From contig CAIKAI010000044.1 in NCBI GenBank assembly GCA_903825325.1, forward strand, positions 1-46,064: 46,064 bases of DNA, in the 5' to 3' direction. Shown piece after piece: positions 12,001 to 38,321 of the stretch. The notes under the pieces were generated by a model. It was not told the DNA's origin and ran no database searches. It saw only the letters and a list, made by a program, of their open reading frames with translations. A program made the translations under genes and the position numbers. Every line of letters starts with the position of its first letter. The stretch's first letter is position 1. The stretch comes from Candidatus Shapirobacteria bacterium. GTDB lineage: Bacteria > Patescibacteriota > Microgenomatia > UBA12405.

Positions 12001-15000
12001 TTTTCCGGTTTTGGCGGTTTTATTGTACAAATGGATTGTTTGGTCGACCACTAAATTACTCCCTACCGTTAGCCCTCTCCGCGTAAACGGTTTACCCTTG
12101 GCCAGTACTTCCTTGACCAAGCCATCCAAAATCGTCAAATTATTATTTTCGAGTAAATCTTTTTTGCTCGCCAGCTCTGCTTGGGATTGAATTAATTGTT
12201 TCAAATTTGTTACTTCGGCTGATGGCACATATTTCTTTTCCGCGTCAGTGGCATACCCCGTCATCAAATTCGCTAATTTTTCTAAATCAGATTGGACTGA
12301 TTGGTAGTTGGGCGAACCCACATATCTATATTTGACCATTTTCAAGATTGTGTCCAAAGCGTCTTTGATACTTTTAACTTTTTGCCTCTGGTCATAACTA
12401 CTATTTTGATCATTTAATTTGTCCAATAAATTATTCACTTCATCAGCATATCTTTTTATTTTTCCATAGTCAGCCAAGCCATTTCCATTATTACTGTTGT
12501 ACTGCATATTACTCACATCATTACCCAGTTTTCCCAATTGATGTGTGTCCAATAGGCTATAGACATTATTAAGGGCAATATATTTAATTCGGCTTAAGGG
12601 CTCATTCATGTCGTAGGAAATTTGCCGTAGGGTATCTTTTAAATTCTGGTTGATTTTATCTAGTTGCACCACCAACAGTTTTACATTGCCCACTACAGCG
12701 TCTTGGACCTTAGTGCCTTTCACCAACTCCAAATCATTTGCCAACTTCCTTAAAATTGCAAGTAACTCATCGATTTTCGATTGTAATTGGCTAATTTTGT
12801 CGGCATCCTTTAATCCGTTCATTTGATCCAAAGATGTTTTACTCATTTGCACCAATTCATTGGCTCTTTCGACTGTCCCCTTGTAACTTTTGAAATTAAT
12901 ATAAATATCCTCCAACTCTGTCAGAGCTTTAACTTTTCTTTCCAACAAGGTTATTTCCCCAACCAAAATGGTTTTTTGTTTTTTGAGATATTGCACATCA
13001 TCGTTTTGATTTTGCGAATTGTCTCGACCGTCTTTAAGAATATTTCCCAAAGCCAGACCTAAGACATTATCGCTTTTATCAGTCACCATATTTTTCAAGG
13101 CCAACCGTCGACCTACCAAAATTTCTCGGATTTTTTGTTTATCTACTTGATTGGTAATCCCCGAAGAATTCAAAATTGTATCAATGTCATCCACTGACAA
13201 ACTATTCAATAAGCTCGCCGCTTGATTTTTAATTTCTTCGATTGTCAAATCTCCAAATAACGCCGCTGACAACGGATTAATATCTTTTGATCGCATTGTT
13301 TTTAATTCGGGAATCGAGTCGGTTGTCAAATCAGTCGCCGTTTTTCGGCCAGTTAATCCCTTAAACAGCAACGATCCACCATGGTCGGTCAGCATTACTT
13401 GACCATTTTTATCAGTTTGCAAATTACCGTATGGGTGTTCTGGACCAGTTCCCACCGCATCCCAATCGAGCAAATATGCTGCCGCTGCAAAATATGGTTT
13501 AGCTTGAGTTCGGTCTACGGCTAGGGTTTGTTTTAGCCCTTCCTCAAAATCAGTCAAGTAATAGACATTATTTCCGTCAGTTAATAATGACCCATTCAGA
13601 GTGGGGATTCCCAGTTTCTTATAAATTTGATTACTAACAAATTCCACTTGCGACTGGACCGGATCCTGATACTGTTTGACATAATATTTCTTGCCAGTAT
13701 ATTTATCCTGATAAGTCCCTCCCTGATTCGTTCCCAATTTTTCTCCAATTTTTTCCAGTCGATCAAAGGTTAACGGGCCATTGGCCAGATCATCAAACTT
13801 CTGTTTTGCTATTGGGTAAATACCCTCCACCAATTTCTTCTTTTCTGCCGCCGAATAACTACCGGTAATAAATTTATTTAATTGCGCTTCCAAGCCAGTT
13901 TGAATGATATTCCATCGTACCTTGGTCAAATCGGTTTGCTCCATCGCATTTTTTACTAGCACATATGTACTCATCCATTCACCAGCTCTGTTCTCACCTA
14001 AAGTGTTAATCACCAACATCGCCAATTCCGAATTACGTCCTCCGTCCTGGTCCGCCTGCACGATTAAATCTGTTCTCAATTTATCTACGTCCTGTTGTTG
14101 GGCCACCACCGTATCTTTTTGCTTAGCGCTGGCAAACTCCATTGGTAGATAGGTAAATTCATCTACCACTCCCGATAATTTGATTGTCTTGGAAATCACC
14201 GAGCTTTCAATTTCATTAAATTGCATTCGTCCTCGCGCCAACTCCGAGATTAACTTATTCAAACTTAAAATTTGCGTCAAATTTGTCGTTATCGGAATCT
14301 GACTATCAACACTTTTCTCCAAATTATTTACACTAATTCGTAAATTTTCCAAATCAGTCCAAGCCTGAGCGTCTCCCGTTCTTAAATGATCCGCCGTTGT
14401 GGCAATTTGTGCACTTAATTTCTTTCCCGTCTCCCCCATTTCTGTCGGATAGTTTTGATTAATATTCTCCACAAATACACCCAAAGTTTCCACCTTGGCC
14501 AATGCTTCACTCATAATTGTCTGTTTACCTTCACTGATCCTTTTTTGGATATCATCAATTCTTGCGAGTATGTTGGTTAGTCCAGTCTTTAAATCATTAG
14601 CCCCATCCACTTCCTCAACCAAACTTATCTGTTGATTAATTCTCTTTTTCCAATTCTCCAAATCGGTCGACAATGCTTCCAAATCGCTAAATGCTTGCTG
14701 TTTGTTTGCCAAACTAGTACTTCTTAAATTGTTCTTTATCTTATTGACCTTTGATTCTATTTCCCCCAAAGACACTGCATTATTAGCTTCTTTTCGCAAT
14801 TCATTGAGAGCATTTTGGGCTCTTATTTTGTCTACTTCTTTCTGAAGCCTGGCTTTATTTTCCGCTTTTGCTTCGGCTAGTGTAAATGCTTGTAACTTCA
14901 ACCTTATTTCTACTGCTGTTGTTAATCCAGCCAAATCAGTCTCCTTCATTCCTGCCTCTAAAGCTGCTTTCTTGGCTGCATCAAATTGCTCTTTAACCGC

Positions 15001-18000
15001 AGCAATATCTTTCTCAATGGTAGCTATCATTGCTTTATTTTTGTCAATTTGCTCCTGTCCAAGATTTAAATCCTCTGCTTGTTTTAGTAAATCCTTGGCT
15101 CGTTGCAATAAGTCCTCCAAATTTGTTTTCTTATTCTTCTCCAAATCAATTATTACTGCTAAACCATTGCTAGCCTCTGTCTTTTGTTTTGCTTCATTCG
15201 CTTGTTTATCGATCAAAACCTGATCCAGAGTCAATTGATTTGGATTAGCCGCCACCGCTACCTCGGCCGCTTTTAATCCAGCCTCAGTTTCCTTATTTGC
15301 TGCATCCATTTCTTGCTTAATTCTGGCTTTAATTGTCGCCACTACTTTATCAATATCCGCTTGGTTCGTGGCACTTTCTAATGCCTGATTCTCAAATAAA
15401 TCTAATTGAGGGTATTTAGAACGAACAGATTGTTTGGCTATACTTAACTGCTGTTGCGTCTCGAATTTTTTTGTTTTCTCCATTAAATTCTTAATATTTT
15501 CTGGCAACTCTCTACCGTCATACAAAACTTTATTATAGAAATTGACTAACTCTTCGAAACTTGTACTCTGAGGCAGATAATCAAATGTCTTCGATCCAAC
15601 TTCTTTTTTGAACGCTGCTATTAATTGGAGTTTTGCCCTTATTTCTACAAATGCATCAATAGATAGAGATTCCTTCAATTTACCCTTATCATTCATGGTA
15701 ATTTTTACAAAATCAGAATAATCGAAATACAAATCAGTCGGTTGATGATAATATCCAAAAATACCCGTCTCTTGATATAACTTTTCAAATTGATCAACCG
15801 CTTCCTTTGCTGTCAGTGGTAAATTGTCACTATAACCATTTAGGATTTTTTCCAATCGTCGATTTCGACTTGAAATATCTATTTTTTTGTTAGTATCTAT
15901 CACTACGATATCAGTGACTTTATTAGTTAAGAGATCGACGGTATGATCATCGAGCTTCATTCCTGAATTTATATACAACTCCGTAATTTTAGCTTTTACA
16001 TCGTTACGGTTTGAATTTTCATTAAAGTTCATTTCCAGAACGCTTTTTAGAATGTCACCAAAACCTTTTGTTGCCACTATCCAGTCTCCTTTATTATTCA
16101 ATCCCAGTGATCTGGCCGCCTCACCCAAAAGTGCCTCGCTGTTAGCATCTAAGGTCAAAGCATTCTTTATACTTAGCTTACTTGTCTCTATTTCATTAAG
16201 TAAAGCGTTATAGTCGTTTTTACCCATTACCCGACCCAATACATTTGGCCATAAAGTTAGTGGCTGTCGATCGAACATCGCCACGGCCGCCTTTACTCCA
16301 TATTTCATTTGCGCAACTCTGAATTCCTCAATTGCTCTAGTCACTAACTGTTTATAATAATCCCGTCTTTTTTCCAGCACCGCCTTCATATAAGGGCTAT
16401 TTATCCTCTCAATTGCCTCAGAGTAATAATCATACAAACCACCATCTGCTTTTTTCTCAAGCAAATAAGCTATTAATAATTCATCACTTATGTCATATCC
16501 CGTCGACAAATATGCAATCAACTCATTTTTTACGCGTGGGTAGATATAGTTTTCTTCCAACATCGTCACCCAAGAATAACTAGTCACATCCCCACTTGAA
16601 CCAAGTTTTATCTGACCATCCGTCCCAATTAAATTATTTAATTCAGTTATATTAAACCAATCCAACAAACTATTTAGTGAATGCCGATGTTCATGATCCG
16701 CTGCGCTTGGTGTGTAAGTTTTTTGTCTAAATCCCACTATGCTAATTCGTTGACCCTCAAATTTGATCGTACTATTAAAACCTCCGGAATAGTCAATTGC
16801 ATTTTGTAATTGCTTACTAATATTGTTCAGATTGGTCACTCGTCCAAAAGTACGCATTGTAATAAAGTCAGTATCATTATCAACTATAAAATCAAAACCC
16901 AATAAAGCGACTTTCACAACGACATTCCCTTGCGGTTTAACAAGATACATATCTTCAAACAGTTTGTTACCATCGATGGTCATTTCTCCGTTTTGATCTT
17001 TTGTTTGATATTGTTCTTGTAGCTCAGCTACCTTAGCCCGAGTTAATTGATAATATTTGAACATCGACAGAAGGTCTTTCCAATAGTTGTCCGGCAAACC
17101 CAACACTTGTGAATTATTTACAAATATTTCCCGTAATTTATTTTCTGAAATATCCGGAGTTGCTTCAATTTGCGCTACAATTTCTGCTTCCAGGGAGTTC
17201 AAAGCCGCTTCATGCAGGGCGTAATTCTGTCGATAATCAGCCATTAACTTCAAATTGGTCGCCAAATCTCTTTTGCTTGAACTGCTTCTAATAGCTGCTA
17301 ATTCCTTTACCGGATCAAAAAACCTCCGGATTAGCTTGCCATTTACCAACTCCACTTCTGTCTTAACCCCATTCTCATCAACTAAATATAAGGTCCTCGT
17401 TTCATTTAAGTTGAATTCCAATTCTTTCCCTGTTAGTTGTTTACCCGTAGCTTTGTCTACAATTGATCCTGTCTCAGCCGGTAATAACACCACACGACTC
17501 CCAAATATTTGAGTCTTTGCCAGTGTTACTCCAAATACTTCCAATGAATACTCCACCCCAACCCCTTCATCTGTCAATGTCAAAGTCGGACTTACATAGA
17601 AAACACCATGATCATCTGCATACGATATTAACATCGATGTCCCTACCACAAATTCCTTGGCAGAACTCATCACCCAAGCCCGATTGGCTTCGTCCCAAAC
17701 ATCAATTGTTAACTTGTCAGACATCATCTTACTATTTACCAACTGATATTTTCCATCAGTGTTCTTGACAAACTTAAGCGTATCCGACCCGTAGTTTCCA
17801 AAACTCAACTTCATCCATTTAAATCTTTTTTCCTGTTGCATTTTGGCTATCAAAGCCACATATTGTTTAACTAGCATATCTCTGACAACTTTCGGAATAG
17901 GCTCTACACTATCACGGGTCAATGATTCAATATATTTATCAATCGCCGGACCAATATACGATGTACCGTCGTCTACATCGGCATAAGGTAGAATCTCCAT

Positions 18001-21000
18001 CAATTTTGCCTCTGACACCACCGAATTTGGCGACTGTCGATCAGTTAAGTAAATTAATTTGTAAGCCCAATCATTCAGTTCGTCCACTTGCCACTGTTCA
18101 GTAATGGTGCTCGGGTCAATATTTATTCCCACTGCCGCATATTTAGCCATCACTTGTTTATTATCCAAAGCCAGACCCAATTTTAATTGAGTTGGACTAT
18201 TTTTTGCATCCGCTGCCACCGCCACCTCAGCTGCTTTTAATCCATCATCAACTTCTTTTTTCGCTGCTGCTTTTTCTCTGGCAATTCTGGCTTCTATTGT
18301 GGCCGCTACTTTATTAATTTCATTTTGATTCTTAGCATTTTCTAAAGCTTGATTCTCAAATAAATCGAGTTGAGGGTATGTAACCCGAACCGTTTGTTTG
18401 GCATTATCAAGTTGTTGTTGTTTTGCTTCCGCTGCAATCCGGCCATCAATTATCTTTATTACATCATTAATTTCCTTCTGATTATTAGCTTCAGATAATT
18501 GTTGACTTTCAGTGTCGGTCAATTTCACCTTTTTATCACCATATTTCTTCAACACGTTGTCTTTGGCATCCTTAAGTTGTTTAGCCTCAGCTTCTTGTTT
18601 TGCTTCTGTGGCTAATTTTTCGACTGCGGTTTTTTCATTATTCAGGATTTTAAATATCTGTTGACCGTTTCTAAAAAATATCAAATACCCATCAGTAGTC
18701 AAAGTATATTTACCGTACATCAACCCAGCGCCTAAGCCACGATTTTCATAGGTTACTTCAACTGTTGGCAACGAAACTTCATCACCACGGCCTACGTTTT
18801 TAATCGATACGATCACACCATTTGTGTTTCTCTTTATTGCTAAATCAACATTTCTTTCCATTTCTGGGAAATATATTTGTTGAACTTCAACAGATCCTCT
18901 CTGATCAATTATTCCCAGCTTATTCCACCTATCCAATCTAAACTGTTTAATTGGGGCTAAATTATCCAACAAAAATGTTATATCAACGTAACTCGAGTTA
19001 AAAGGCATAAATAAATTACCAGCCACATTTGCTATTTGATTCGAATATTCAATCGGTTTGTTTGTCAAAACTCCACTATTTATAACCTCACCGTAAACAC
19101 CAAAACTGGTAACTTTTGCATCGGCAAAATATATTCTGTCAACCCAAACTCTTCCCATATTGTCATATCCCATTACCCACCGCACCGGCCTACCTTGCCA
19201 CACAGTTTCATATATTTCCAAGGTTACCAAACCTAATAATGTGTGATTTGTTGTTTCAGTCTTTACTGGCCCTTTACTAAAATCTGGTACAAAGCCATCC
19301 GGATACTTTATCGCTGACAACTTATTTCCATCAACTGGCACTTTATTGTAAGTCCCGGGCATGTATTGTTGAACATCTGCCAACGCTCCACCGTCATCAT
19401 ACATTTTTACTTCTCTGTCCCACTCAGAAAGTGTGAAATTCACTACATCATCATTTTTTAGTTTGAAATAATTTAGGATATCCTTATTAACTTCGATCAT
19501 TTGTTCACTTTCTTTACCTGATAGATAGTCGATGATGTCTTGAGTGGGTTTAGTTGTCTGAGTATAATGTGCTCCTTTTTCAAAAGCGCCACTAGGAGTC
19601 ATCCAAGGCGACAACCTCCAACCACCAGAACTGTTACTTTTCCAAAATAATCTTGGTTGTAACTTGCCATTAACTTCAATAAAAGCTACCGACAATAACC
19701 TGACTTTTTCAAATTCGTTGGTCGTTTCGCTTGTCATCTTCAATACATTTGGGAACATAAAATACGTATCCCTACCCACTGTCAAAACCTGAGTCGGGAT
19801 CAAATTTGGATCAGATAACATATTCCGAACAGTTGCTGTTTGCTTGGTATCAGTTCTAGCATTTTTGAAAAATTCACTTTCCGCTTCAGTTAAATTTCGA
19901 AGGTTTATTTTTGTAGCTGACTCATCAGCTCGGTTTTGTGTTGCTGCTACATCCGCAACTTTTTTCCGCGCCACCAATTGATTCACTCCGGCAATTGTTT
20001 TAGTTTTATCCAACTGTGTCTGATCTACGCCCAACGCTAGGGCATCTTTTTTGGCTTGTTCAAAATCAGCCGCTAATTTTTCTGCCGCAGCTTTCTTATC
20101 AGCCAAACTTTGATTATAGACAACAACTAAATTATCAATTTTGCTGACATCCACACCAAGATTTCTTCCTAAATCTGCCATTTTCTGGGCATTTGCCAAG
20201 TTACCTTTGTTGACAATCGTTATTCTGTTTACATAATCCGTAACAGTTTTAATATCCGTTTCTTTTTGAATTTCCGCGGCGGTTTTTTGCAGTGCTTTTG
20301 GCACTGATCCATTTAATTCCGCCAATTCAATATCATTTTGCAATTGGGCCACCACTGCTTCAATGCCTCTATACCCAACCCCCAAATTTTTAGCTCTGTC
20401 CAAAATGCCCTTTGCCTCAACCAGCAAAGCTTTTTTATCTGCACCACTTGCTTTTAATTTAACCGTCATCGCCGCCCAATCACTTTCGACTTTATTTTTA
20501 GCTTGCATTACCAATAAACCATTTGTCAACTCTTTTAGGGTCGTCATTTCCTTATTTTTGAAATCATCAGTTGCCAATACCGACAAATCTGATCCGGTTA
20601 AATTGCTTGACCCGGCAAAATCAATGGCTATTAGTCTTTTACTACCATCTGCCATGGTTTGTACCCTAATATTTGACGGATGCAATTGGTTGGTCAATTT
20701 ATAATTAGAATTTGTTGATGCTTCCTTAGATGTGTTAAATAAATCACCATGTGCCGTACCCGTTATATCATGTACTTTTTGCATTTCCTCGATAAAGTCA
20801 TCAACCATTTTCTGGGTTAAATCACCACCTTCAGCTAAGTAGTTGCTTAACGCCACCGTATCTTCAAAATATTCTTGTTGGAATCCGCCCAAAACTAAAC
20901 CTTTAAAGGTTATAAATGGTGCCTTGCCCCCCCATTTTTGATAAAACTCCAGTTGGAATTTGTTATCTTCGTACACTCCTCCGGCAATATACTCATCCAA

Positions 21001-24000
21001 AATCTGCCCTTTAGGCAAAATTGGTTTTATAAAGATTTTTGTCAAAGTCTTGGTTATTTTATTTACAAAAGTATTGGCATACGATCCCGACGATCCTTTT
21101 TCCCCGTACAATGGTGTCGCCACATAATCCGGTATGTTCAAGGGCCAGCCCAACGGCACCATCTTGGCGACCTCATTGGCTTTCTGCAAATATAAATCTT
21201 TATCCGTTTGGCTCGCTGCTCGAATAATCTTGTTTAAATAGCGATTATAAACTTGGGCCACAATGTCATAAAAATATTGTGGCTCAGCTGTTTTAGTAAA
21301 TAAGCCATCTTTTTCCCATTGCTCTAAGGTGTCTAATTGCGAGTTAAATAGTTCGTCCGAATCCTTCGTTGTATTAGTCACGTATTTCTTCGCCCCTAAT
21401 TTTACGGCCCTAGCCGCCACGTCCGCCGCACTTACTACCACCGGCGGTGGGTTATTAACTCGACTTGCGTTTGGCACTGTCGCCGTTGAATTATTTGTTG
21501 TCGTTCGACTTGCGTTTGGCACTGTCGCCGTTGAATTATTTGTTGTCGTTCGACTTGCATTTGGCACTGTCGACAATCCCGCTTGGTAGTCGATTAACTT
21601 TTTATTTAAATTATCAATAATAGTTTGATCAACTCCGTATCCTTTAGCATCATTTATTAACTGCTTAACTACCTCCACATTGCTCGCGTCTACCGTCGTT
21701 ATTGTGGTTATTTTTGACATTGCCGCAATCCTCGCTCTCAACTCCGGAGTTGTCCCCGTTACCACAAATCCCGCTCCAAACATTTTTCTCCCCTCTCGAG
21801 CCAATGCTACTCGGGCAGTTATCTGAGCATTGGTTCCCGTCACCATAAAGTCTGCCCCAAATTCAGTTTGAGTATCTTTAATCAGTTGATCCCTGGCATT
21901 TAATGGTTGAACTCTGCTGCTATTTGGTATTGTCGCGGTCGAGTTAAATGCATCAATTTTCTTTTGCAAATCAGCAACCACATTCGGCTCAACGTGATTA
22001 TCCGTCGCCTTTTTCAACAACGCCGTCGCTTTAGTCATCGCTGCCGCTTCTGAAATTGGGTCCAACACTGCGATATCGTAAGTAGTTTTTAATTGAGTAT
22101 CAGTAATTCCCGACAAATTTACGTTTTGATACGCCGATCTAATTACCGTCATTAATTCCAATCGTTTGGAGGCTATCGCTGCCGTAAAATTATCCCAATC
22201 AGCATTTGTTTGAATACTTGGCAAAACATCCGTTCCAAACAAAGTTTTATAATTCTCCTCATTAACCATTCTGACGCTCGAAGTTTTCGCCGGCACTCGA
22301 TCGTTGGTTGGATTATTAGCCTCCCCCATTCCTACATTTCCCGCTCCACCATTATCAAATGCATCAATTCTATTTTGTAAATCATTTTTGATACTTTGAT
22401 CTATTTGATAGCCATTAGCACTGGTTAACAGCTTTTTTGCCTGAGTCACATTGGCCGAGGTTATCGGTCCCAGTGCTGCGATATCCGCCACATTTTTTAG
22501 TTGGACTGTTGTTAAATTAGCCGCATTAACATTTGGGTATACCGCTTTTATTTGAACTGCCAATTCGTCACGTTTAGCACTAATATCCGCCACCATTTGA
22601 TTCCATGTTCCATTGTTCATTGCCACCGGCTTGGGTACCACAATTCCCAAAGCCCGGGCATTTGATTCTGTTACCATCCTCGCTCCACTATTTACTTTTG
22701 GTACCAAATCGGTCGCAGTGTCAACCGCAACCGACGATGCTGCCGCGCTCCCCGAATTGTTAGTTGAAGTTGAGTTCGAACTTGCCACCGTCGTTGATTC
22801 CCCACCCATACCCCGTCTATTTTCGGTTGGGAAATCTTCAGCTGTGTATCTTGAAGCAATCGCTTTTTCCAACTCCACTAAATTCTTCGCCTCCGCCACC
22901 GAACCTTGAGTTTGATTACTTCCACCATTTTCAAAAGAAATCCCAGTAGTTGGATCAGTCGCCATCAATTTCTGATCGGGACTCCATTTTGTTTGGAAAT
23001 CACCATAAGCTTCCGATTTTCCCAAGCTGTCTAGTTGACCCTTCAAATCAGTGGCTAACTTTTGTAGCTCTGCTTGAGCACTTTCCAAAGTATTTTTTAC
23101 CGCCAAGGCTCCACTACCTGGAGTGTCATTTATCATTTGGTTTCTCAATTGAGATTCCTGAGTGAAAACCGCCAATTTATCGTCATAGTATTTATTAATT
23201 TCTGCCAGCTTCGCTTCTCTAGCCGCCGGATCGATTCCTATTTGTCCCTCAACTGCCTTCACTGCCAAACTTCGAGCATCAGCAATCGCCTCTCTCGACA
23301 TATTCTCAATCGCCTTTATGACTGTTTCTTGTCGAGTTTCAGCGATCGCTTTCGCCTGATTGGCTTCATATAATGCCTTTGCCTGGGCTGTATTAATATT
23401 TGGATCGGCTCCGACAATGAAATGATCCGGTCCATATAATTCTGCATTTCCATATTGGGGATTATCCCGCAAAAAGGTTCTGATATCGGCATCAAAGTTA
23501 TCCACTGAAGGCGGCTTACCCTCGTTGGTCATCACCCTCACAATTTCGCTATATAATCTATCCCGACCAGTACCTTGAATCGCCGTGTCCATGGTGGTAT
23601 TAGTGTCATTAATTTGGACCCATCTGGCATTTTTATCTACTGCCAAATTTAACCCGGTGTCGCGGTGTTGAATTTCCAACACATAATCAGCCGAGCTCTT
23701 AGCCATCCCCTCACCATAATTTGCTGCCACATAGTTTTTGTAGTCGGTGATATTGTTAAAAGTTTTAATCGATCCATCTTTGAATTTAATGGTAAAAGTA
23801 CTCGCATCGGCATCGATAATATGGTGGTCCCTAACTCCCTTATATTGTTCATCAATTGCCTTTGAAACCTGGTCAGTCATTTCTCCAGTCGCCGTATTCA
23901 AAATTCTCACATTCTCGTAAACTAGCTGAGCCCGGTCGAGCTGAATAATTTTGTCCGCCAACACATCCATTTGACTACTTGCCGGCTCTCCATTTCCATT

Positions 24001-27000
24001 AGCTCTAGCCTCCGCTCGTCCTCGAGCTGCTTGCATCTCTGCATCAAACGCTCTGCCATCCATCCCATTTTTTAAAGCAAAAACTTCATCCATCACTTCG
24101 GTAGTTAGTCTCTGGTATTCATCCCGACTAATAACATCTTTCGGAATCAAACGCGCCACCGCCTCTAAAGCATTTGCCACTCCGGTTACGCTTCGAGGTT
24201 CAATTAAAGGTGGGGCATTACCAATCTGCACTGCATTTTTCATATCCCCATAACCTTTTGTTATCAGGTCTGGAGTTGCATCCAAAATAATTACTTGACC
24301 TTCAGACTTCGATAAAAATAATTGCAAACCATTTGTTTGATTTGACTGGTCATAAAATTTGACACTCGCCAAATCTAGTACCGGGGCCTCTTTTCCTGCC
24401 CCCATGGCCGCATTGTACATCGCTTTCCCCGTTTCCTCCGCCGCTAAAATCTCCAATATTGATGACTTGGTTTGACCAGTTGTCGACCCTTTGTTTAATA
24501 TATGGCTCGAACCATCTGCCGCATAACCGTAATCAACCGTCGGCACTTCCGCCAATTGACCCAGCTCCGTATTTACCACATTTAATCTGGTTACCAAATC
24601 GCCACCGCCCAAGCGGTCTAGTATATCGGGGCGTAATAATATTTCTCTAAAATCAACATCACTTAAGTTTCTTAACGTTTCTTTTAGTGGTGAATTGCTA
24701 CTCTCGACCGTTTCCCGATATATCCTGGTAATGGTTGCTTCGTCCATTGGCAGCTTTGTTTTTGGATCGAACACATCAACAAAACTACTCTTACCATCTT
24801 TCAAATTTTGCATCACCTTATTCCGTAAATCCGTTATTGCCTTTTGTTGCAAAACCTCGCCTCTCAATGCCTGAATCTCGTCATATGTCATTCTTAAAGT
24901 GGTATCTGCCGCCGTCATTGTCAACAAATATTTAGCTTCGCCAATGTTTGTCCGATAATTCTTCCCCGCCTGGATATATTTGCTACCTTCATCGGCAATT
25001 ACCGTGGCCTTATCAAATATGTCTGCCAACAATTTTCCGTTATCCCCCCCGGCTTGAATTCCAAAATGCAGATCCGAGTCGGAAATCATTACTGACACTT
25101 TTCCTTTTTGTAACAGCACCTTAAATTCTTCCGTCGTCATTTCAACTGGAGTCACCTTGCCGTCAATCAACACTAATTTTCTCCAACCAATATCTTTATC
25201 AAAAAACACCCTGTCTATCCCCGCATCGGCATACATTGTATGAAAAGACTCATCAACCGCCCCATTTCGGAAGTTAACGTCAGCAAATATTTGCATCACC
25301 GGCTTACCCACATCGGCGTACAACAAAGTCATCGCTTGGCTGGCCACCAAACTTTTTCCGTAGCCGGTTTGTGCCGACAATACTACCACCGGATTATTGC
25401 TCGACGCCACCCCCACAAAATCGGCCAATTGTAGTTCTGTAAAAGCAAAGTTTGATCCCTTATAAGTCTTACCAAACGTTTCTACCCTGGCCACCACCCG
25501 ATTTAATTCATCAATCGCAGTTTTATAATCAGCCAATTGCTTCGGGTCAGTTACCACTTTTTCATTTACTCTCAATTGATTACTCCCCGGCTCTCTCACA
25601 AAAAGACTGCCACTTTCCGCCATCCCCACCAATGGTTTACCTGTGTCCTTAGCCGCTTTAGTCGCCTCCGCCAAAATCGCTTTTGAAGTATCCGACACGA
25701 CCACATTCGCCTCCGAAAATTTTGGCAACAAATTTGTGGTTGTATTCGATGAAAATAGGCTCTGAATTGCCTCACCAATTCTCCCCAATATGCCTTTCGG
25801 TGCCGCTGCTTCTGCCTCAGCTAAGTTTTTCAAAGCTAAATCATTTGCTGCTTTGGCCTCGTTCACCACATGCTTGGCTGCGTCTACTTCGCTCCCGGTA
25901 GCGTTTTTCAAGGCAGTTTCTGCTTTGGCCAAATCAGCGGCAGTTTTTGCCGCATAAGAATTAGCCGCATCAGCAATTTTTTGGGCTTGTTTTGCGGCTT
26001 CACCCGGGTTAAAAATATTGATGATGGCATCAACAATTTTTAGATTTTTTGGTAATGCTGCATTTGCCTCTGCCAGCGATTTATTAGCCGCATCATAAGA
26101 CATCTTGGCATCATTCACAGCTTTATTCGCCGCCGCCAGATCTTTTACCTCAATCGTTTCTCCGGCGGCTTGTCTGTCTTGTAATTCTGTCAAATTTTTC
26201 ATCGCCTCATTTAGGGTGGTCCGAGCATCATTCGCCTCAGCTGTGGCCACTGCAATTACTCTTTGAACCATGCTTCCCGACGAACTGGCTGGGACCACTA
26301 CATTGGCAATTCCTTCTGCAATTCGGCTCAGTAATCCTGGTGGTGTGGCTAATGCTTTGGCCGCGGCTAAGGTTTTATTAGCTTGAGCCACTAAGTCTTT
26401 CGCCAATGAAACCTCGCTCTCGGCATTAAATAGTTCGACCTTGGTCGACACCTTCAGGGTTCCGTTAGCTTTGTCAGTCTCAATCCTAGCATTGACCTCT
26501 GCTAGCTTTTCCTCAGCCTGCTTTAAATTAGATTCTGCACTGGCTTTGGCTGCTTCAGCCGAAACTACCACCTTGGTCGCCCGCGAGGTCACCGATTTAT
26601 CCGGATTAAATATATTTGACACTGCCTCCCCTAACCGTGCCGGCAAACTTTTTGCCAACAACGTTTCTGCCTGTTTTACCCCAATTTGTGCCTTCTCATT
26701 TGCTGTCATAGCTTTGTCCACTGCCTCCAAAGCCGACTTGATCTCCGCTGGTTTAACCGTTTCGCCGTTTTTCTGTTTGACGAGCAGATCATCTAAAGTC
26801 TTTTGGCTACTATCCAAGTTCGTTTTTGCTTCTTCCGCCTTTGCCTTGTTTAAATCGACAATTTTCTGCGCTTCCACCGCTACCGGATCCTTGGGTACAA
26901 TATTGGCGATATTCTTCCCTACCTGAGCCACAAATGCTTCAGCCACCTGTTGTACTGCATTTTTTGTCACCGGGACTACTGGTGCTTTTGCTGTTTCCGC

Positions 27001-30000
27001 CGCTGGTTTAGCACTCTTGGCTTTGGCTAATTCGGCGTCCAAAGCCGCCTTCGCCTCCACTTGTTTTTGATTAGCCAAATCTAGCTTGGCCTGAGCATCC
27101 ACTAATCCTTGGCTAACCGATTCCGGTACCTCGCCTTGAATTCTACTTGCTACTTCCGCCGAGGCCTTATATCTGTCTAAATTTTCCTGAGCCTGGACCA
27201 ATTCCGTTTTAGCCGTCTCCACCGCCGCTTGTTTTTGGTTCAAACTGGCTTCCGCCGTTGCCTTAGCACCTTCCACTGCCAAACTCGGAGCAATTTTCCC
27301 TAACTCGGCATTGGCCGCCGCCATTGCTCTTTGGTTAGTTTCTGCCAACTTCTGAGCGCCATTATATTCTGTCTGAGCCGCAGTCAAGATTTTTTTATCG
27401 GGATTTAATTTATTTGTCGCGCTTTCAAGCTTTAACTGCGATTCTACTAACTTCGTTAATCCAGCCTGATAATCAGCCGCCGCCTTGGCTGCCTGATTGG
27501 CCGCCTCCAAAGCTGTGTTAACTTCGGGCAACTTTGCTTTATCGGCCGGATCAGTCGAACTAGCTAATTTATCCGATAATGCCTGTAAATCAGTTTGCAA
27601 CTTAACCGCCTTCTCTAAAGCCGTTTTGGCTTGACTAGTGGTTGTTTCCACCAATTTTGTATTTAGGTCGGCCACCTTTTGATTCGCCGCTTCAGCCTTA
27701 GCTTTCGCTTGCTCTAGTGCTACACTGTCTTGCTTACTTTCGGCCAATTTGACCTCTAACGCCGCTTTTTCTGCTGCCGCTGCCGCCCCAGCCCTTTGCG
27801 ATGCTTGATATCCAGGGTCAGCAGTTAGCCTGTCCAATTGGCTTTGAGCGGCTTTTAATCCCTCTTCAGCTGACCTGACCGCCACCGAAGCTTCCAATAC
27901 CGCCTTTGGATCTCCCTGCAATTTCAAGCTGTCCAATTTACTTTGAGCCTCATCATAAGCCTTTTTCGATTGATTAACCGCGGCCGTAGCTTCAACCACC
28001 GGCGAAAGATTACTTAACTTTTGCGATGCTGCTGTATGCGCCTCCATTGCCTTACTCAAAGATTCCTGAGCTGCAGTTAATTTTGCCTGCTGTTCGGCAG
28101 TTACAGTTGATCCTTCTGTTACGAATTTGCTTACTTCACCAAACCTTTGGGCTGCAATATTTAAGTTTGCTGATGCACTTTCCAGCGATAATATCGCTGA
28201 AGTTTCTGTAATCGCCGCTTTAGCTTCGGCCACACTTTTAACCACTTCCCCGTTCGCCGCCAACCCAGTTAATCCCATGACACACATTGATTGCGAATCA
28301 ACATCCTGACTTAAGCCTTTCGAAATCGCTCCCGAGCAAGCGCTAATCACAAATAAATCCGCACCCGCCGCACTAACGATTGCTGATCCTGCCGAGCCAA
28401 CTTTAGCCGCAGTGTCTAATACCGCCATCGCCCCCGCCATGTCCGTTCCAGTATGACTCGCCAACGAATCAATTACTGCCGTCGCCCCCTTCGCCGCCAA
28501 TCCTCCCACCATTCCCCCGAGATGAAGCATTTGACCTGCCGCCATTGCCCCCGTCGAAGCACATTCTAGCTGAGAAGCATTTGGATTTGAACAGGTATCC
28601 ACTGCCATTTTTCCAAAAATTATTGACCCATTTATTGAATTAGCCACCTGAATCCCGGTTGCTACTGCCCTCGCACCATTAGCTAATGTTGCCGCCAACT
28701 CAGCACCCTGTGAGGCATACGCCACTAAATCTCCGGTTTCACTCACTATTTCTCCCGCTTTTGCAATCGTACTCAAGACTCCAGCTGCTTGACCCAAAGC
28801 GCCAGCCACCGCTCCCGTCCCCATCATAGCTGAAATAACTACCGTAGTGGTACAAGATTCCTGAGTAATTCCGGCCGTACCCACCCGACTACAAGTGTCA
28901 ATCGAGTTACTAATCATTGATGGTAAAAATAGTGCTCCTGAATATGTTAACCATAAAGATGCCACCACCGGAGTTGCCGCTCCGCCCGTACCAATAATTG
29001 CTGCCACCGAACCAACTGCTGCCGCTGCTGTCAACACTGGAGTAGCGATATCCCCTGCCACGCCCGCATAACCTTGAGTTAACAGACTAAGATTATATGA
29101 ATTTACTCCCGACATCGCCATATCACTTTGCGCCGTGGAAATTTTTTCCGACTCCCGATAGAACCGACCATTCGTATAATCATTAAAATTGATCCTCACA
29201 TATGTTCCCAAATCTTGCTTTCGGGTATCAAGCATTTGTCCTTCCTTTTCCCAAGTTGTTTTTCCCGCCGCAATGTCGGCCACCACTTGGTCATATCGAC
29301 CCTCATTAGTTACCGTTCGAATAATCGGCGCCTCAGCCTGAAACTTGGTTTTTTCTGCCATCAAATCAATCGCTTTTACATTCGGATTGCTCGACAATTT
29401 GATGATTGAGGCCATAGCGCTAATTTCAGTACTACAATTTTTTCCACCAAGTTGGGTGCATCTTTCCATTGTTAAAAACTCATCCTCTGAATGAAATACT
29501 GTCGCTTTTGCATTCAATGAGTTAGGTGTCAACGGATTCTTTGAGAAAGCATTCATATTTGTACTAATCGCAAACTGAGTGCATGACGTCAGGTTACTTT
29601 CACCCGCCGAAGATGAATTTTTTTTGCTTAAACAATCTTTGACGTTTTGGTCAAACATGGCTTGATCAATTGCTTTGGTCTGAGCTGATATACCCACCGT
29701 CGCCATATCATGCACGGCAATGTTCGCCTGTCTTTCAATTGACAACTTCGGGATTTCCGTGTTCGGATCAAAACCAGCCGCCACCAGCAAATCTTCTGGC
29801 TTGGCAAAAGAGGCGCATAAACTCGGTTTATCAGCACACACTTTTTCATTAACCAAATCAGTGTTTCCATTTAGATAGTTATTTTGCAACACCGCCTTGA
29901 TATAGTAATCAATTACCGGGACATCTTTGTACAATGGCAAATATTTTTGCACCAATACTGCATCGGATAAACTTGAACATTTATCCGCTCCCATATCCTT

Positions 30001-32181: not shown

Positions 32182-32188
32182 TAAGTTT

Positions 32189-32845
32189 TTACTGTATTTC
32201 AAAAACAACTGTTAACTTTTTTTCTACTTTAACGGTCTCAAAATTGGTATAAAATCCGGGTTTTTCGTTTACCGAACCTCCCAAAATTCCGTTATCATCG
32301 GAAATTGAAATTAAATTACCCACATTTTTACCAGTAACTTTAGCCAGCACTTCAGCTTTAACCCTAGCGTCTTTAATTGCTTCAGTGCGAACTTTCTCCT
32401 CAACATTAGCTGCATCTTTTGGAATAAAAGTTACTGCGCTAATTGAATTGGCCCCGTTAGTAAAAAGCAATCTAATCAGATCACTCGTTTTCGACACTGA
32501 TTTCGACTTAATGTTCATCGCACTCACCATAATAAATTTACCGTCACTTTGCGGCGATACTTGGTAGAAGCTCTTATTAATTTCGGCATCTTTTCCCATG
32601 GTGTTTAGGGTCAAATCCGTCAACCGTAACAAATTAGCTTCGCCACTCGCAATTGCATCACCTGCCGACGCTCCCGAACCTGCGGCCGTCACCACTAACG
32701 ACACTGAATCAACCGGCACCACCATTGATCCGTCACCCGTTACACCTACAGTTGTTTTTATCCTCCCCAACCACAGGTAACCTCCGACTAATAACAATGC
32801 CACCAACACCCCGGTTATCCAGGGCTTATTTTTAATAAAGTCCAT
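32189..32845 (-). CDS. SIMPL-domain (DUF541-like) envelope protein with N-terminal TM/signal
   Basis: 218-aa track ORF with hydrophobic N-terminus WITGVLVALLLVGGYLWL. SIMPL-like pattern: VGVTGDGSMVVPVDSVSLVV, then ISAVTFIPKDAANVEEKVRTEAIKDARVKAEVLAKVTGKNVGNLISISD. Its stop is 8 nt upstream of the giant-gene GTG. Confidence 0.65.
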   Translation of the reverse strand: MDFIKNKPWITGVLVALLLVGGYLWLGRIKTTVGVTGDGSMVVPVDSVSLVVTAAGSGASAGDAIASGEANLLRLTDLTLNTMGKDAEINKSFYQVSPQSDGKFIMVSAMNIKSKSVSKTSDLIRLLFTNGANSISAVTFIPKDAANVEEKVRTEAIKDARVKAEVLAKVTGKNVGNLISISDDNGILGGSVNEKPGFYTNFETVKVEKKLTVVFEIQ

Positions 32846-35691: not shown

Positions 35692-37638
35692 TTACTCATA
35701 CTTCAACGCGTTCAGTGCTGAGATTTGGCTCGCCCTCTTGGCCGGGTACCACCCCGTTATTACCCCTAAAATCAATGACGCGGCTAATATCCCCACCGAG
35801 AACCATCCATTCATTACAAATAAGTTCTGGCCGATTTGGGTGCTGTTAAACACTAGCCGATTTAGGATCCCTCCGATCACCCACCCCAGTCCTAGGCCGC
35901 CTATTCCTCCCACTCCCAGAATTAACACTGCTTCGGTCAACAACAATCTAGTTACATCCACATTGCTTGTTCCCATACTTTTCATCACGCCGATTTCCCG
36001 TGTTCTTTCCAATAACGACACTGTTAAGGTATTAAACATTCCTAGCAGCGCCACCACTAAAGCAATCGCCCCAAATGACCCCAATAAAAATCTAATAATC
36101 GCAAATAATTTGGCGATTTGCGCCAGCGTATCCACTACACTCCGTGTCGTCAACCCCATCGATTGAATTAACGATCGTACTTCTGGCAGTTGCTCTTCGG
36201 TTTTAGCCATCACCCTTACTAGTGAGTATTCTTTAATTCCTAAACTTTCCAAATCAGCCCGCGGCACCAAAATCACTGGCTTCTTAATGTCGTTGTACAC
36301 TCCTACCACGTTATATTTTTCCGGTTCCGACAATACCCGACCACTAATTTGTGGCAACACACTACTGGTAACTAAATACGACACCTCCACCTCCGACCCC
36401 AAAATCTTTTTATCGTCACTATTCCAGGCTTTTACCAATGCTTGGCTGACGATTATTTCTTTTTTATTCCCCTGCCACACTTTTATGGTCACATTATTAC
36501 TCACGGTATCCGTTTTCTTTTTGTCTTCCAACAACGTTACCAATTGCGCCGATTGAGTCGCCGTCCCCAATACCATCCCCTGACCACTTTCCAACATCTT
36601 TTCAATATCTTTGTCCACGGCCGACAATACATTTACGTTTTTCATATCCAAATAAACTTCTTTTTCTTCCTTAACATCGGTATAAACACCATCGCCCAAA
36701 CTGTCTCTAATTGGCATTTTTGCTTTGATCCACTTGCCTTGCAATTTCCCGTTGTTGGTTGCCACTCTTCCCAATCCTGAACTATCATCATAAACTCCAC
36801 CCCAGGCCACCTCACCCCGATAACTGTCTAAAATTGATCCGCGGATCCAACCCATCATCTTTCCCGTTGCCGCTGGTGCGTCGTAGGCGGGAATATATGT
36901 CTCATCTCGCAATCGAAAATCAATCGTCTCCGCTGGCATCGCCGACTCAGTCGCCACTCCGGCCACCTCACCTATTGTTTTTTGGGTAGCGTCTTTATTC
37001 AACAACTCTTGAATATCTGCCGTCCCATCATATTGTTTATCCGCTTCTTTTGAAAAATTTTTACCTGTCACAATTTTTATATCCGCCATCGCCAAATAAT
37101 TATTTGATAAGCCTGTTACCACCGTATCCACTTTCGAATTTTTATAAATTACCTGCCCCGCCAAATTAATCGCTTGATCCACTTTTTCGACTCCAGGTAT
37201 GACTTTGATTTTTCCCAAGACATCACTATTAATTTTTACCTTACTTGATTCCGAAGTTACCTCGGCCACTCGCAAGGCATCCGGCCAAATTATTTTTTGT
37301 GTCACCACTCCTTGCAGTCCGTAACCAAAAGACACTAACAACACCACTGCCCCAATTCCCACCGCCACCCCACCCACCGTCACCGCCATTTTTGATCGAC
37401 CTTTTACCAAGTTTCGATAAGCCAACCACATTGTTTGCTTCCAAGACAAGCTCCCCGACTGTGGTTTAATAATTTTTCCCAAATACATGAAATTCTCTTT
37501 AATTATCCGAATATGGCTTTTTATATCAATCAGTCTTCGATAATCATATCTAACTATACCAAAATACATCTTTTTCCCAATTTTCATCACTATTTTTTGG
37601 GTTTTGGTCTTTAGATTTTGGAGTTTATTAATTATCAT
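35692..37638 (-). CDS. MacB/FtsX-family ABC transporter permease with a large extracytoplasmic domain
   Basis: 648 aa. TM1 is MAVTVGGVAVGIGAVVLLVSFGYG, followed by an extracytoplasmic region of about 400 aa. C-terminal FtsX domain: LLERTREIGVMKSMGTSNVDVTRLLLTEAVLILGVGG. ATGA overlap with the ATPase gene at 37635-37638. An internal start (MYLGKII) cannot be excluded. Confidence 0.85.
   Translation of the reverse strand: MIINKLQNLKTKTQKIVMKIGKKMYFGIVRYDYRRLIDIKSHIRIIKENFMYLGKIIKPQSGSLSWKQTMWLAYRNLVKGRSKMAVTVGGVAVGIGAVVLLVSFGYGLQGVVTQKIIWPDALRVAEVTSESSKVKINSDVLGKIKVIPGVEKVDQAINLAGQVIYKNSKVDTVVTGLSNNYLAMADIKIVTGKNFSKEADKQYDGTADIQELLNKDATQKTIGEVAGVATESAMPAETIDFRLRDETYIPAYDAPAATGKMMGWIRGSILDSYRGEVAWGGVYDDSSGLGRVATNNGKLQGKWIKAKMPIRDSLGDGVYTDVKEEKEVYLDMKNVNVLSAVDKDIEKMLESGQGMVLGTATQSAQLVTLLEDKKKTDTVSNNVTIKVWQGNKKEIIVSQALVKAWNSDDKKILGSEVEVSYLVTSSVLPQISGRVLSEPEKYNVVGVYNDIKKPVILVPRADLESLGIKEYSLVRVMAKTEEQLPEVRSLIQSMGLTTRSVVDTLAQIAKLFAIIRFLLGSFGAIALVVALLGMFNTLTVSLLERTREIGVMKSMGTSNVDVTRLLLTEAVLILGVGGIGGLGLGWVIGGILNRLVFNSTQIGQNLFVMNGWFSVGILAASLILGVITGWYPAKRASQISALNALKYE
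37614..37626 (+). repeat. Third exact copy of the 13-mer gattttggagttt, at the ABC ATPase/permease junction and inside the annotated 5' end of the permease ORF
   Basis: Exact 13/13 match to the murB-upstream copies, in the same plus-strand orientation. Confidence 0.8.
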
Positions 37639-38321
37639 ATTTTCTCCTTTTCAATATAACCGTCTTTCATAAATATTCTTCGATCGGCCAACTTTAGAAA
37701 TGACTCATCATGAGTCACCATTAAAATGGTTTTACCTTCTTTTTTATTTAAGTTTACCAATAAGCTAATTAATTTTTTACCATTTTTACTATCCAAATTT
37801 CCCGTCGGTTCGTCGGCCACCACCATTTTTGGATCAACTACTAGTGCCCGCGCTAAACTTACCCGCTGTTGTTCTCCTCCCGACAAATCCATCGGTTTTT
37901 TATTGGCCATTTCTTCTAATTCCACCGTCTTTAATGCTGCCATCGCTTTCTCTTTTAATTCTTTTTGACTCAAATTTGCCAACATCAGTGGATAGGCCAC
38001 GTTTTCCCACACCGATAATGACTTAATCCAGTTACTTTGTTGAAAAACTATCCCCACATTGCGCCATCGATGTGCTGCCCGTTCATCTTCACTCATTGTG
38101 GCCAACCATTTATCCATCAAATGCACCCTTCCCCGGCTCGGGTCCTCCATTCCTAAAATTAAATGCAACAATGTCGATTTGCCACAGCCCGACGGTCCAA
38201 AAATAATCGCCATTTCCCCTTCCTTAATTTTTAAATTAATTTTTTTCAATACCCACACCCGTCGACTTCCCACCTTATATGACATCCCCACCCGCTTTAG
38301 ATCGACAATTATGTTGTTCAT
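37635..38321 (-). CDS. ABC transporter ATP-binding protein (MacB/LolD/FtsE-like)
   Basis: Walker A GPSGCGKST, Q-loop VFQQ, signature LSGGEQQRVSLARAL, Walker B VVADEPTGNLD, H-loop VTHD. ATGA overlap with the upstream giant gene at 38318-38321. Confidence 0.92.
   Translation of the reverse strand: MNNIIVDLKRVGMSYKVGSRRVWVLKKINLKIKEGEMAIIFGPSGCGKSTLLHLILGMEDPSRGRVHLMDKWLATMSEDERAAHRWRNVGIVFQQSNWIKSLSVWENVAYPLMLANLSQKELKEKAMAALKTVELEEMANKKPMDLSGGEQQRVSLARALVVDPKMVVADEPTGNLDSKNGKKLISLLVNLNKKEGKTILMVTHDESFLKLADRRIFMKDGYIEKEKI

Follow-up and report, generated by a model that had tools for sequence, protein, structure and literature searches.

Anatomy of the locus

The window analysed here, that is, the whole 46,064-nt stretch of contig CAIKAI010000044.1 from a Candidatus Shapirobacteria bacterium, carries on its minus strand a frame that is open from position 32211 to position 1, where it leaves the window, and that comprises 10,737 codons without a single stop. 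Residues of the encoded giant protein are numbered from position 32211, the start of the frame. The subject of this report is a module of this protein that bears the motifs of a helicase-type P-loop ATPase. Read from the N-terminus, the protein begins with a basic stretch, a membrane anchor, a series of Cys-pair loops interrupted by a hydrophobic stretch, an Ala/Lys/Glu-rich segment and the ATPase module. A first-pass annotation, drawn up by a model from the nucleotide sequence, had placed the module in the middle of the giant protein; it falls within the first quarter of what is visible of the protein, and the span proposed at that time, 23500-25460, corresponds to giant residues 2251-2904.

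The four strings picked out in that annotation, NFAFTELQ, AQTGYGKS, VIADEGS and IQGTGRDR, all occur where it had located them, on the minus strand and in the right order, over 632 residues. The spacing between Walker A (motif I) and Walker B (motif II) is 125 residues, with two strands in between, and that between RDTGLNL, the candidate motif V, and QGTGRDR, motif VI, is 22 residues. The large insertion reported between motifs II and VI is present, but is better described as two insertions. The first, of about 230 residues, runs from motif II to a conserved DATP, the candidate motif III; the second, of about 90-100 helical residues, follows DATP and separates motif III from motif IV. Candidates for the helicase C-terminal motifs IV (ENVRILN) and V, which had been left to be looked for, were found as well, and both are invariant in the family described below. 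The positions of all features are collected in Table 1.

A small family with conserved motifs

When 1.84 billion representative proteins were searched exhaustively with HMMER, three relatives came to light, hereafter P0001 (4,404 aa, phmmer E 2e-134), P0002 (1,569 aa) and P0003 (190 aa). A metagenome scan added a new one, L001 (47-50% identity), and met P0001 again on a 949-kb contig. The same contig, labelled 'Candidatus Shapirobacteria bacterium' and belonging to the Microgenomates lineage within the Candidate Phyla Radiation (CPR), was the only match of a GTDB scan made with the alignment, while the GTDB scan made with the single protein gave no match. A short ENA scaffold, L027, encodes the N-terminal lobe of a P0003 homolog. 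No relatives were found in an IMG/VR scan or, by tblastn, on plasmids, and a word-indexed homolog search returned no match although relatives exist. The family therefore stands at about five known members, and all of them seem to come from small CPR genomes.

BLASTP aligned the module with L001 at 47% identity over 1,007 columns and with P0001 at 37% over 930 columns. The region from residue 2172 or 2255, approximately, to residue 3134 is the longest block shared within the giant protein family and is among the best conserved. The other blocks shared by BLASTP are a Cys-rich N-terminal region (23-25%) and a kinase region (30-31%), most of the remainder being unalignable. P0001 has the same order as the window protein, namely anchor, Cys/hydrophobic region, ATPase and kinase. 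Since the module keeps its place behind the anchor, the Cys-loop region and the hydrophobic stretch, and since it is among the best conserved parts of an otherwise fast-diverging protein, I regard it as part of the conserved core of the family.

The family sequences are 37-50% identical and their alignment is shallow (effective number of sequences about 1.9). Among the four long sequences, invariant columns make up 71% of the motif positions, against 25% of the module. The conserved blocks are, in order, the Q of TELQ, A..G.GKS (GKT instead of GKS in L027), Q.[FY]AD, D..L.FG, I.DEGS.Y, DATP, EN.RILN, RDHH, RDTGLNL and QG.GRDR. As read from the alignment, this order and spacing would be that of superfamily 2 (SF2) helicases, i.e. 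Q, I, Ia, Ib, II, III, IV, V and VI, with two interruptions.

The weight of such motifs in a protein of this length was gauged by shuffling the giant protein, using patterns that were written after the sequence had been seen and whose figures are indicative only: the Walker A pattern alone occurred in 67% of the shuffles, Walker A followed 60-180 residues on by [VILMFAC]3-DE in 3%, and Walker A with both hhhDE and Q..GR.{1,2}R within 700 residues in none of 3,000. About 1.1 Walker A matches are expected per protein, so that a lone Walker A is uninformative. The hhhDE and the Q..GR.R of the module, on the other hand, are the sole matches to these patterns in all 10,737 residues. It could be argued that in so long a protein the motifs have arisen by chance and that no nucleotide-binding domain is there, given the Walker A expectation and the fact that the region is unmatched in every library. 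Such a coincidence is barely credible, since the ordered combination never arose in the shuffles, the motifs are invariant across homologs, and the model described below shows a P-loop-type beta-alpha-beta domain with both Walker motifs canonically placed.

In the P0002 homolog of locus L026, an in-frame TAG (positions 9361-9363) follows motif VI (GRDRFYA*IEREM), and the frame runs on for a further 1,995 codons. P0001 has Glu at this position and the window protein Ser-Glu. The TAG could be a sequencing error, the mark of a pseudogene or a population variant.

Table 1. Motifs, domains and genes discussed in the text. Residues are those of the giant protein unless module numbering is indicated; pLDDT, predicted local distance difference test score of the AlphaFold model.
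Feature	Window position	Residues	Strand	Basis and remarks
Conserved putative ATPase module	22810..25452	2254-3134	(-)	BLASTP and phmmer to relatives
Predicted RecA-like lobe 1	24976..25452	2254-2412	(-)	Motifs Q, I, Ia, Ib, II; pLDDT 64-83; Foldseek to helicase lobe 1
NFAFTELQ	25452-25429	2254	(-)	String match
Q-motif-like TELQ	25429..25440		(-)	Q 19 residues ahead of motif I AQTG; Q kept in 5/5 homologs
Motif I / Walker A AQTGYGKS	25351..25374	2280 (Lys 2286)	(-)	A..G.GK[ST] in all homologs
VIADEGS	25002-24982	2404	(-)	String match
Motif II / Walker B IADEGSKY	24976..24999	Asp 2407, Glu 2408	(-)	DEGS.Y in 5/5 homologs
Insertion 1	24307..24975	2413-2635	(-)	Motif II to III; mostly helical, two short hairpins; pLDDT 70-82 at 2481-2550
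Candidate motif III LDATP	24271..24285		(-)	DATP in 4/4 homologs; modelled strand 400-405, helix 407-412 (module numbering)
Insertion 2	23926..24183	2677-2762	(-)	Long helices predicted, low confidence
Candidate RecA-like lobe 2	23512..23925	2763-2900	(-)	Invariant motifs; poor model, pLDDT 26-55
Candidate motif IV ENVRILN	23896-23916		(-)	Invariant
RDHH	23821-23832		(-)	Invariant
Candidate motif V RDTGLNL	23644-23667		(-)	Invariant
Motif VI QGTGRDR	23557-23577		(-)	Fits Q..GR.R; conserved in homologs
IQGTGRDR	23580-23557	2878	(-)	String match
Helical extension after motif VI	22810..23511	2901-3134	(-)	Three long helices; pLDDT 67-82 at module residues 721-830; kept in L001 and P0001
Giant open reading frame	1..32202		(-)	At least 10,734 codons; runs off window start; probable start TTG 32202
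SIMPL/DUF541 gene	32189..32845		(-)	Directly upstream of giant gene, 14-nt overlap; PF04402 E 1e-19
N-terminal membrane anchor	32113..32169	15-33	(-)	Hydropathy scan; basic stretch KNLVKKK before
Ala/Gly-rich hydrophobic stretch	28912..29049	1055-1100	(-)	Kept in L001, P0001 and P0002
Ser/Thr kinase domain	4843-5661	~8851-9123	(-)	HGDVKPSN and DFG
Ser/Thr kinase domain	2263-2877	9779-9983	(-)	HADIKPKN and DFG
VanY D-Ala-D-Ala carboxypeptidase domain	1549-1902	10104-10221	(-)	PF02557 E 2.4e-22; near visible C-terminal end

Comparison with helicase families

Searches with the Pfam models proposed in the first-pass annotation, SecA_DEAD (PF07517), DEAD (PF00270) and ResIII (PF04851), gave nothing above cut-off. 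SecA_DEAD and SecA_PP_bind (PF01043) were unmatched even at E <= 10, ResIII and Helicase_C were unmatched, and DEAD stayed below its cut-off. The two weak Pfam traces both cover the P-loop: nSTAND_NTPase5 in two of the five members (best E 0.015) and DEAD in one of the five (E 0.086). This silence is not due to composition, since the ordinary ABC ATPase encoded in the window is strongly matched by Pfam.

Profile comparison was carried out with hhalign against a DEAD-box profile built from five E. coli paralogs, and also against RecQ, UvrB, DinG, Rep, UvrD, Rho and the ABC ATPase of the window. The segment from the Q motif to motif I aligned with the E. coli DEAD-box profile at z = 7.9 over column-shuffled nulls. 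The only match in register within lobe 2 was to motifs Va-VI of RecQ, and it was non-significant (P = 0.05-0.09). Assignment to the DEAD-box or another helicase class by profile was given up, there being no discrimination beyond Walker A among the profiles tried.

The module resembles the DEAD-box proteins in several ways: AQTGYGKS is close to the motif I consensus AxTGxGKT, a conserved Q lies about 19 residues upstream, and the layout of strand, Ia, Ib and DE-x-x is the same; the V-VI block, as just described, is in register with that of RecQ. By contrast with both families, the core of the module is interrupted twice, by about 230 and by about 90 inserted residues, no SAT/TAT is found at the usual distance after motif II, the Pfam DEAD and Helicase_C models remain below threshold, and no nucleic-acid-binding context is evident.

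Predicted structure of the module

AlphaFold run with the single sequence was unusable (pLDDT 38.7). A model obtained from a four-sequence alignment, with L001 left out, reached a mean pLDDT of 52.9, module residues 1-170 being at 64-83. In this model, lobe 1 comprises, in order, a helix bearing the Q, strand VVVLS, the P-loop, a helix, strand VMQIF, helices, a beta-hairpin insertion, strand VSVMIS, a helix and strand TVIA, which ends in DEGS. The AQTGYGKS P-loop sits between strand 35-39 and helix 48-60 (pLDDT 57-79), and DEGS at the end of strand 163-166, with two further strands coming before. Two strands between those of Walker A and Walker B is the arrangement of superfamily 1 (SF1) and SF2 proteins.

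When the model was compared with the PDB using Foldseek, every alpha/beta match with a probability above 0.5 was to lobe 1 of an SF1 or SF2 helicase: MrfA (0.77), Mfd (0.75), reverse gyrase (0.72), Upf1 (0.63), Brr2 (0.63 and 0.54) and DinG (0.57). About 19 of the top 50 matches were SF1/SF2 helicases, and the best match in BFVD was a 'DEAD-like helicases family protein' (E 4.9e-3). I hold with moderate confidence that the modelled fold of lobe 1 is RecA-like and helicase-like. Since lobe 2 and the insertions were modelled below pLDDT 50, it is the motifs that carry the two-lobe architecture.

A P-loop NTPase of another class has to be considered at this point: a single nucleotide-binding domain followed by helical domains, for instance a STAND- or AAA+-like switch for the downstream Ser/Thr kinases, in which the helicase C-terminal motifs would be coincidental. 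Bacteria are known to have fusions of STAND/AAA-type NTPases with Ser/Thr kinases, e.g. the PknK-type proteins, and the kinase domains are conserved in the giant protein family. Moreover, nSTAND_NTPase5 is the sole recurrent weak Pfam match, the chain is largely helical past Walker B, lobe 2 has no usable model, and similarity past Walker A is undetectable for any class. By contrast, the 125-residue spacing of the Walker motifs with its two intervening strands fits, from what is generally known of these folds, SF1/SF2 better than AAA+/STAND; there is no STAND, NLR or AAA+ protein among the good Foldseek matches (dynein appears at a probability of 0.04-0.08); and the conserved upstream Q, the DATP and the RDTGLNL-QGTGRDR pair with its 22-residue spacing are typical of SF2. 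An NTPase of another class is unlikely.

The relationship to SecA

The first-pass annotation had suggested a local similarity to nucleotide-binding domain 1 (NBD1) of SecA (SDLHFGIQAGGDN / ATVIADEGSKY). The module was compared, as a whole, as six sub-regions and as a spliced core without insertions, with a hidden Markov model (HMM) and an HH profile derived from 15 SecA/SecA2 sequences out of PLSDB records, several of which are mislabelled chromosomes. The similarity did not hold up, for hhalign aligned 27 columns only, which extend from Walker A as far as the strand that follows (P = 0.003-0.007).

If the module were an extremely diverged SecA homolog, consisting of NBD1, an insertion like the preprotein cross-linking domain (PPXD), NBD2 and a scaffold helix, it could drive the export of its own giant protein through SecYEG. 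In SecA the PPXD sits between motifs II and III, and there is a large insertion at that very place in the module; long helices follow motif VI, like the SecA scaffold helix; and the best alignment to the SecA profile, which includes the Walker A segment, reached z = 4.0 over column shuffles. However, the insertion shows no similarity to the PPXD (hhalign P = 0.19, no Pfam match) and is predicted to be mainly helical, and the three conserved helices after motif VI have no profile similarity to the C-terminal half of SecA (P = 0.19). Altogether, the insertion, the motif III region, lobe 2 and the C-terminal helices gave P = 0.13-0.23 against SecA. Without Walker A, z was 1.3 in local and 0.5 in global mode, and the DEAD-box profile outscored the SecA profile (35.4 versus 29.7, and 39.3 versus 29.7 in a second comparison). 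The SecA HMM gave negative bit scores for all five family members, whereas it detected SecA-like domains in two other giant proteins with E values of 4e-54 and 1e-58. Many helicases outranked SecA in Foldseek, where it took places 37 and 42 (probability 0.11-0.13). Together with the silence of the Pfam SecA models, these results make a SecA homolog improbable. A resemblance noticed by eye between 'LASVKFYDQS...ILDATP...PPLIEPR' of the module and 'LASITFQNYF...GMTGTA...IPTNRPMIR' of SecA was dropped (hhalign P = 0.23).

What the module does share with SecA is a Walker A, an acidic Walker B and a large domain inserted between motifs II and III; in both, motif VI is followed by long helices, predicted ones in the module, and the context is a membrane. 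It differs in having no sequence or profile similarity past Walker A, no PPXD signal and only weak structural matches, and in its motifs, motif II being DEGS in the module and DEVD in SecA, and motif III DATP in the module and TGTA in SecA.

The two giant proteins that served as positive controls are both plasmid-borne, namely Mycolicibacterium arabiense WP_163916267.1 (3,473 aa; E 4e-54; locus L019, on the MOBF plasmid NZ_AP022592.1) and Ca. Bandiella woodruffii WP_323733494.1 (2,966 aa; E 1e-58; locus L020, NZ_CP110822.1). Like the window protein they are very long, and they have an internal SF2-type ATPase, as it probably does. Unlike that of the window protein, their ATPase, though divergent, clearly belongs to the SecA family, and it bears no likeness to the module (hhalign P = 0.12-0.42).

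In most giant bacterial proteins, divergent SecA_DEAD domains and preprotein-binding domains have been reported close to transmembrane anchors, without the wing or scaffold, and a role in the export of these proteins themselves has been proposed; SecA_DEAD domains of this kind are embedded in the giant proteins that Omnitrophota and Actinobacteria encode (West-Roberts et al., bioRxiv 10.1101/2023.11.21.568195). This precedent speaks for a SecA origin, and it also counts in favour of a helicase-type ATPase in the window protein. The window protein, with its at least 10,737 codons and with an anchor and a hydrophobic stretch upstream of the module, fits the design: in both cases an SF2-type ATPase, a probable one here, lies downstream of transmembrane segments in a very long membrane-anchored protein, no SecA wing is recognisable and there is a cell-wall-active partner domain, here VanY. 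By contrast, the Omnitrophota and Actinobacteria domains are matched by the Pfam SecA models while the window module is not, and the host of the window protein is a CPR bacterium of the Microgenomates/Shapirobacteria type, with about five members of the family known. I regard the module as a variant of the known theme, an ATPase within a giant membrane protein, and not as a member of the SecA family.

Weighing the assignment

Several results count against assigning the module to the helicase-type ATPases. Single sequences and family profiles alike found nothing above threshold in Pfam, NCBIfam, PADLOC, PHROGs or the PDB sequences, and Foldseek gave no match at E <= 1e-3 in the PDB or BFVD. When Walker A was left out, the z scores fell to 0.4 for the DEAD-box and 1.3 for the SecA profile, equal to the shuffled null, and around the P-loop the unrelated ABC ATPase of the window and single helicases align about equally well. 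Motif VI is one residue short of the consensus QxxGRxxR, and motifs III, IV and V were picked by eye after the conserved blocks were known. Lobe 2 and both insertions fall below pLDDT 50 in the model. Finally, Cys-pair loops lie on both flanks of the hydrophobic stretch, so that the ATPase could be outside the cell, where it would be without ATP.

The absence of a P-loop NTPase match above threshold, which the first-pass annotation had named as grounds for withdrawing its proposal, was thus the outcome in every library searched. The ATPase call is kept nevertheless because of the conservation, the motif statistics and the partial model. Of the SF2 / SecA-DEAD-like ATPase first proposed, what remains is a conserved P-loop module with an SF2-style motif order and a RecA-like model of lobe 1; the affinity to SecA is lost. 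On balance I lean, by a modest measure, towards the view that the module is a catalytically intact, highly divergent helicase-type (SF2-like) P-loop ATPase and part of the conserved core of a giant protein family, as its motifs and the model of lobe 1 suggest. The motifs, their conservation, the fold of lobe 1 (at moderate confidence) and the restriction to a few CPR genomes are observed; the fold of lobe 2, ATP hydrolysis, a cytoplasmic location and a role in the deployment of the protein I infer.

If so, the ATP-binding site would be the interlobe cleft, with Lys 2286 and Ser 2287 gripping the phosphates and Mg, and Glu 2408 would activate water, while Arg 2883 or Arg 2885 of motif VI would act as the arginine finger that senses the gamma-phosphate. 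Closing and opening of the cleft could then power either movement on a polymer or a remodelling activity. The module would in this way serve as a membrane-proximal motor for the deployment of the giant protein and would not be a swappable cargo.

Membrane topology and the side on which the ATPase lies

The first-pass annotation had described the giant protein as membrane-anchored, in agreement with the N-terminal hydrophobic helix revealed by the hydropathy scan, a feature also present in P0001 and P0002. The Ala/Gly-rich stretch further on (residues 1055-1100) may form one or two membrane helices, and the side of the membrane on which the ATPase lies is set by how often this stretch crosses. 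Topology was judged from a crude hydropathy analysis. Fourteen Cys-pair loops occupy giant residues 196-1310 (window ~28280-31625, minus strand), on both sides of the stretch. Their Cys are 7-21 residues apart and there is one loop per ~50-95 residues, except for a gap at the hydrophobic stretch; the first three loops have GC.xGWYxGPxGGCFQVGTGI in common. The Cys pairs on both sides hint at an exported ATPase; its requirement for ATP and the conserved, unvarying place of the module point to a cytoplasmic one.

Another reading is that the SF2-like ATPase is itself delivered as cargo: most of the giant protein would be exported, the hydrophobic stretch would enter a host membrane, and the ATPase, the kinases and VanY would act on the host or within it. 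The loops, which are likely to be disulfide-bonded, suggest that both flanks of the stretch are extracytoplasmic. As a rule, CPR bacteria live attached to a host, and relatives of the protein occur in Candidatus Shapirobacteria, a lineage of that radiation. A long Ala/Lys/Glu-rich, coiled-coil-like stalk between the hydrophobic stretch and the ATPase, and the peptidoglycan-active VanY domain near the visible C-terminal end, would also suit a delivered protein. However, the ATPase has an unvarying place in the conserved core and is not part of a variable C-terminal cassette; the hydropathy analysis from which the membrane passes were judged is crude; and no evidence of a translocation apparatus or a processing site was seen. 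Delivery as cargo appears quite improbable.

Ultra-small bacteria that depend on a host are believed to use giant proteins to attach to the host and attack it, and a conserved ATPase with an unvarying, membrane-proximal place is the obvious candidate for the engine that exports or powers them. A bolder and rather unlikely extension is that the module founds a branch of SF2-like motors which has so far gone unrecognised and is restricted to CPR bacteria of the Microgenomates type, either independent of SecA or diverged past recognition, and that it is the built-in engine which threads or deploys a 10,000-residue host-directed protein equipped with kinases and a peptidoglycan peptidase. Were this true, the protein would amount to a device for export or injection that is complete in itself, in organisms whose secretion machinery is minimal. 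Surveys based on motifs or on Pfam, such as counts of SecA_DEAD in giant proteins, would miss the module, because it is unmatched by any family model and has about five relatives; the design of a giant protein with an internal motor may thus be commoner than annotated. At about 900 residues, the module is a compact and testable target.

Other domains of the giant protein

C-terminal of the module lie two Ser/Thr kinase domains in which the HxDxKxxN and DFG motifs are intact. In front of each stands a conserved domain, about 180 residues long and with a CxxxxxxC pair, which is present in three copies (giant residues 7120-7298, 8251-8425 and 9149-9350) and is also found in P0001. The VanY domain beyond the kinases fits the published theme of giant genes and cell-wall degradation.

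Two HExxH strings occur in each of two proteins: HEHRH and HEEQH in the giant protein (residues 5173 and 7870), HELNH and HEEIH in P0001 (2203 and 3290). Judged by the strings themselves they may be zincin-type metallopeptidase sites; Pfam gives no support for this.

Start of the giant gene and neighbouring genes

The TTG at 32202 is probably the real start of the giant gene, because the resulting 14-nt overlap with the upstream SIMPL gene recurs identically in the homologous loci L002 and L026. The SIMPL gene (6616-7281 in L002, 4011-4667 in L026) precedes the giant gene with an overlap of exactly 14 nt at all three loci with a visible start, the window included. The pair adjoins dnaA-dnaN in L002 and L026, and ruvC in the window. 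The remaining genes of the window are ordinary chromosomal ones and encode RuvC, a metallophosphoesterase, MurB, a MacB-type ABC pair and a second large FN3 protein. The last is itself very large (38318-46063, minus strand): it exceeds 2,581 aa, leaves the window at its end and contains FN3 and purple-acid-phosphatase-N-like repeats. The MacB-type permease/ATPase pair (35692-38321) lies immediately downstream of it.

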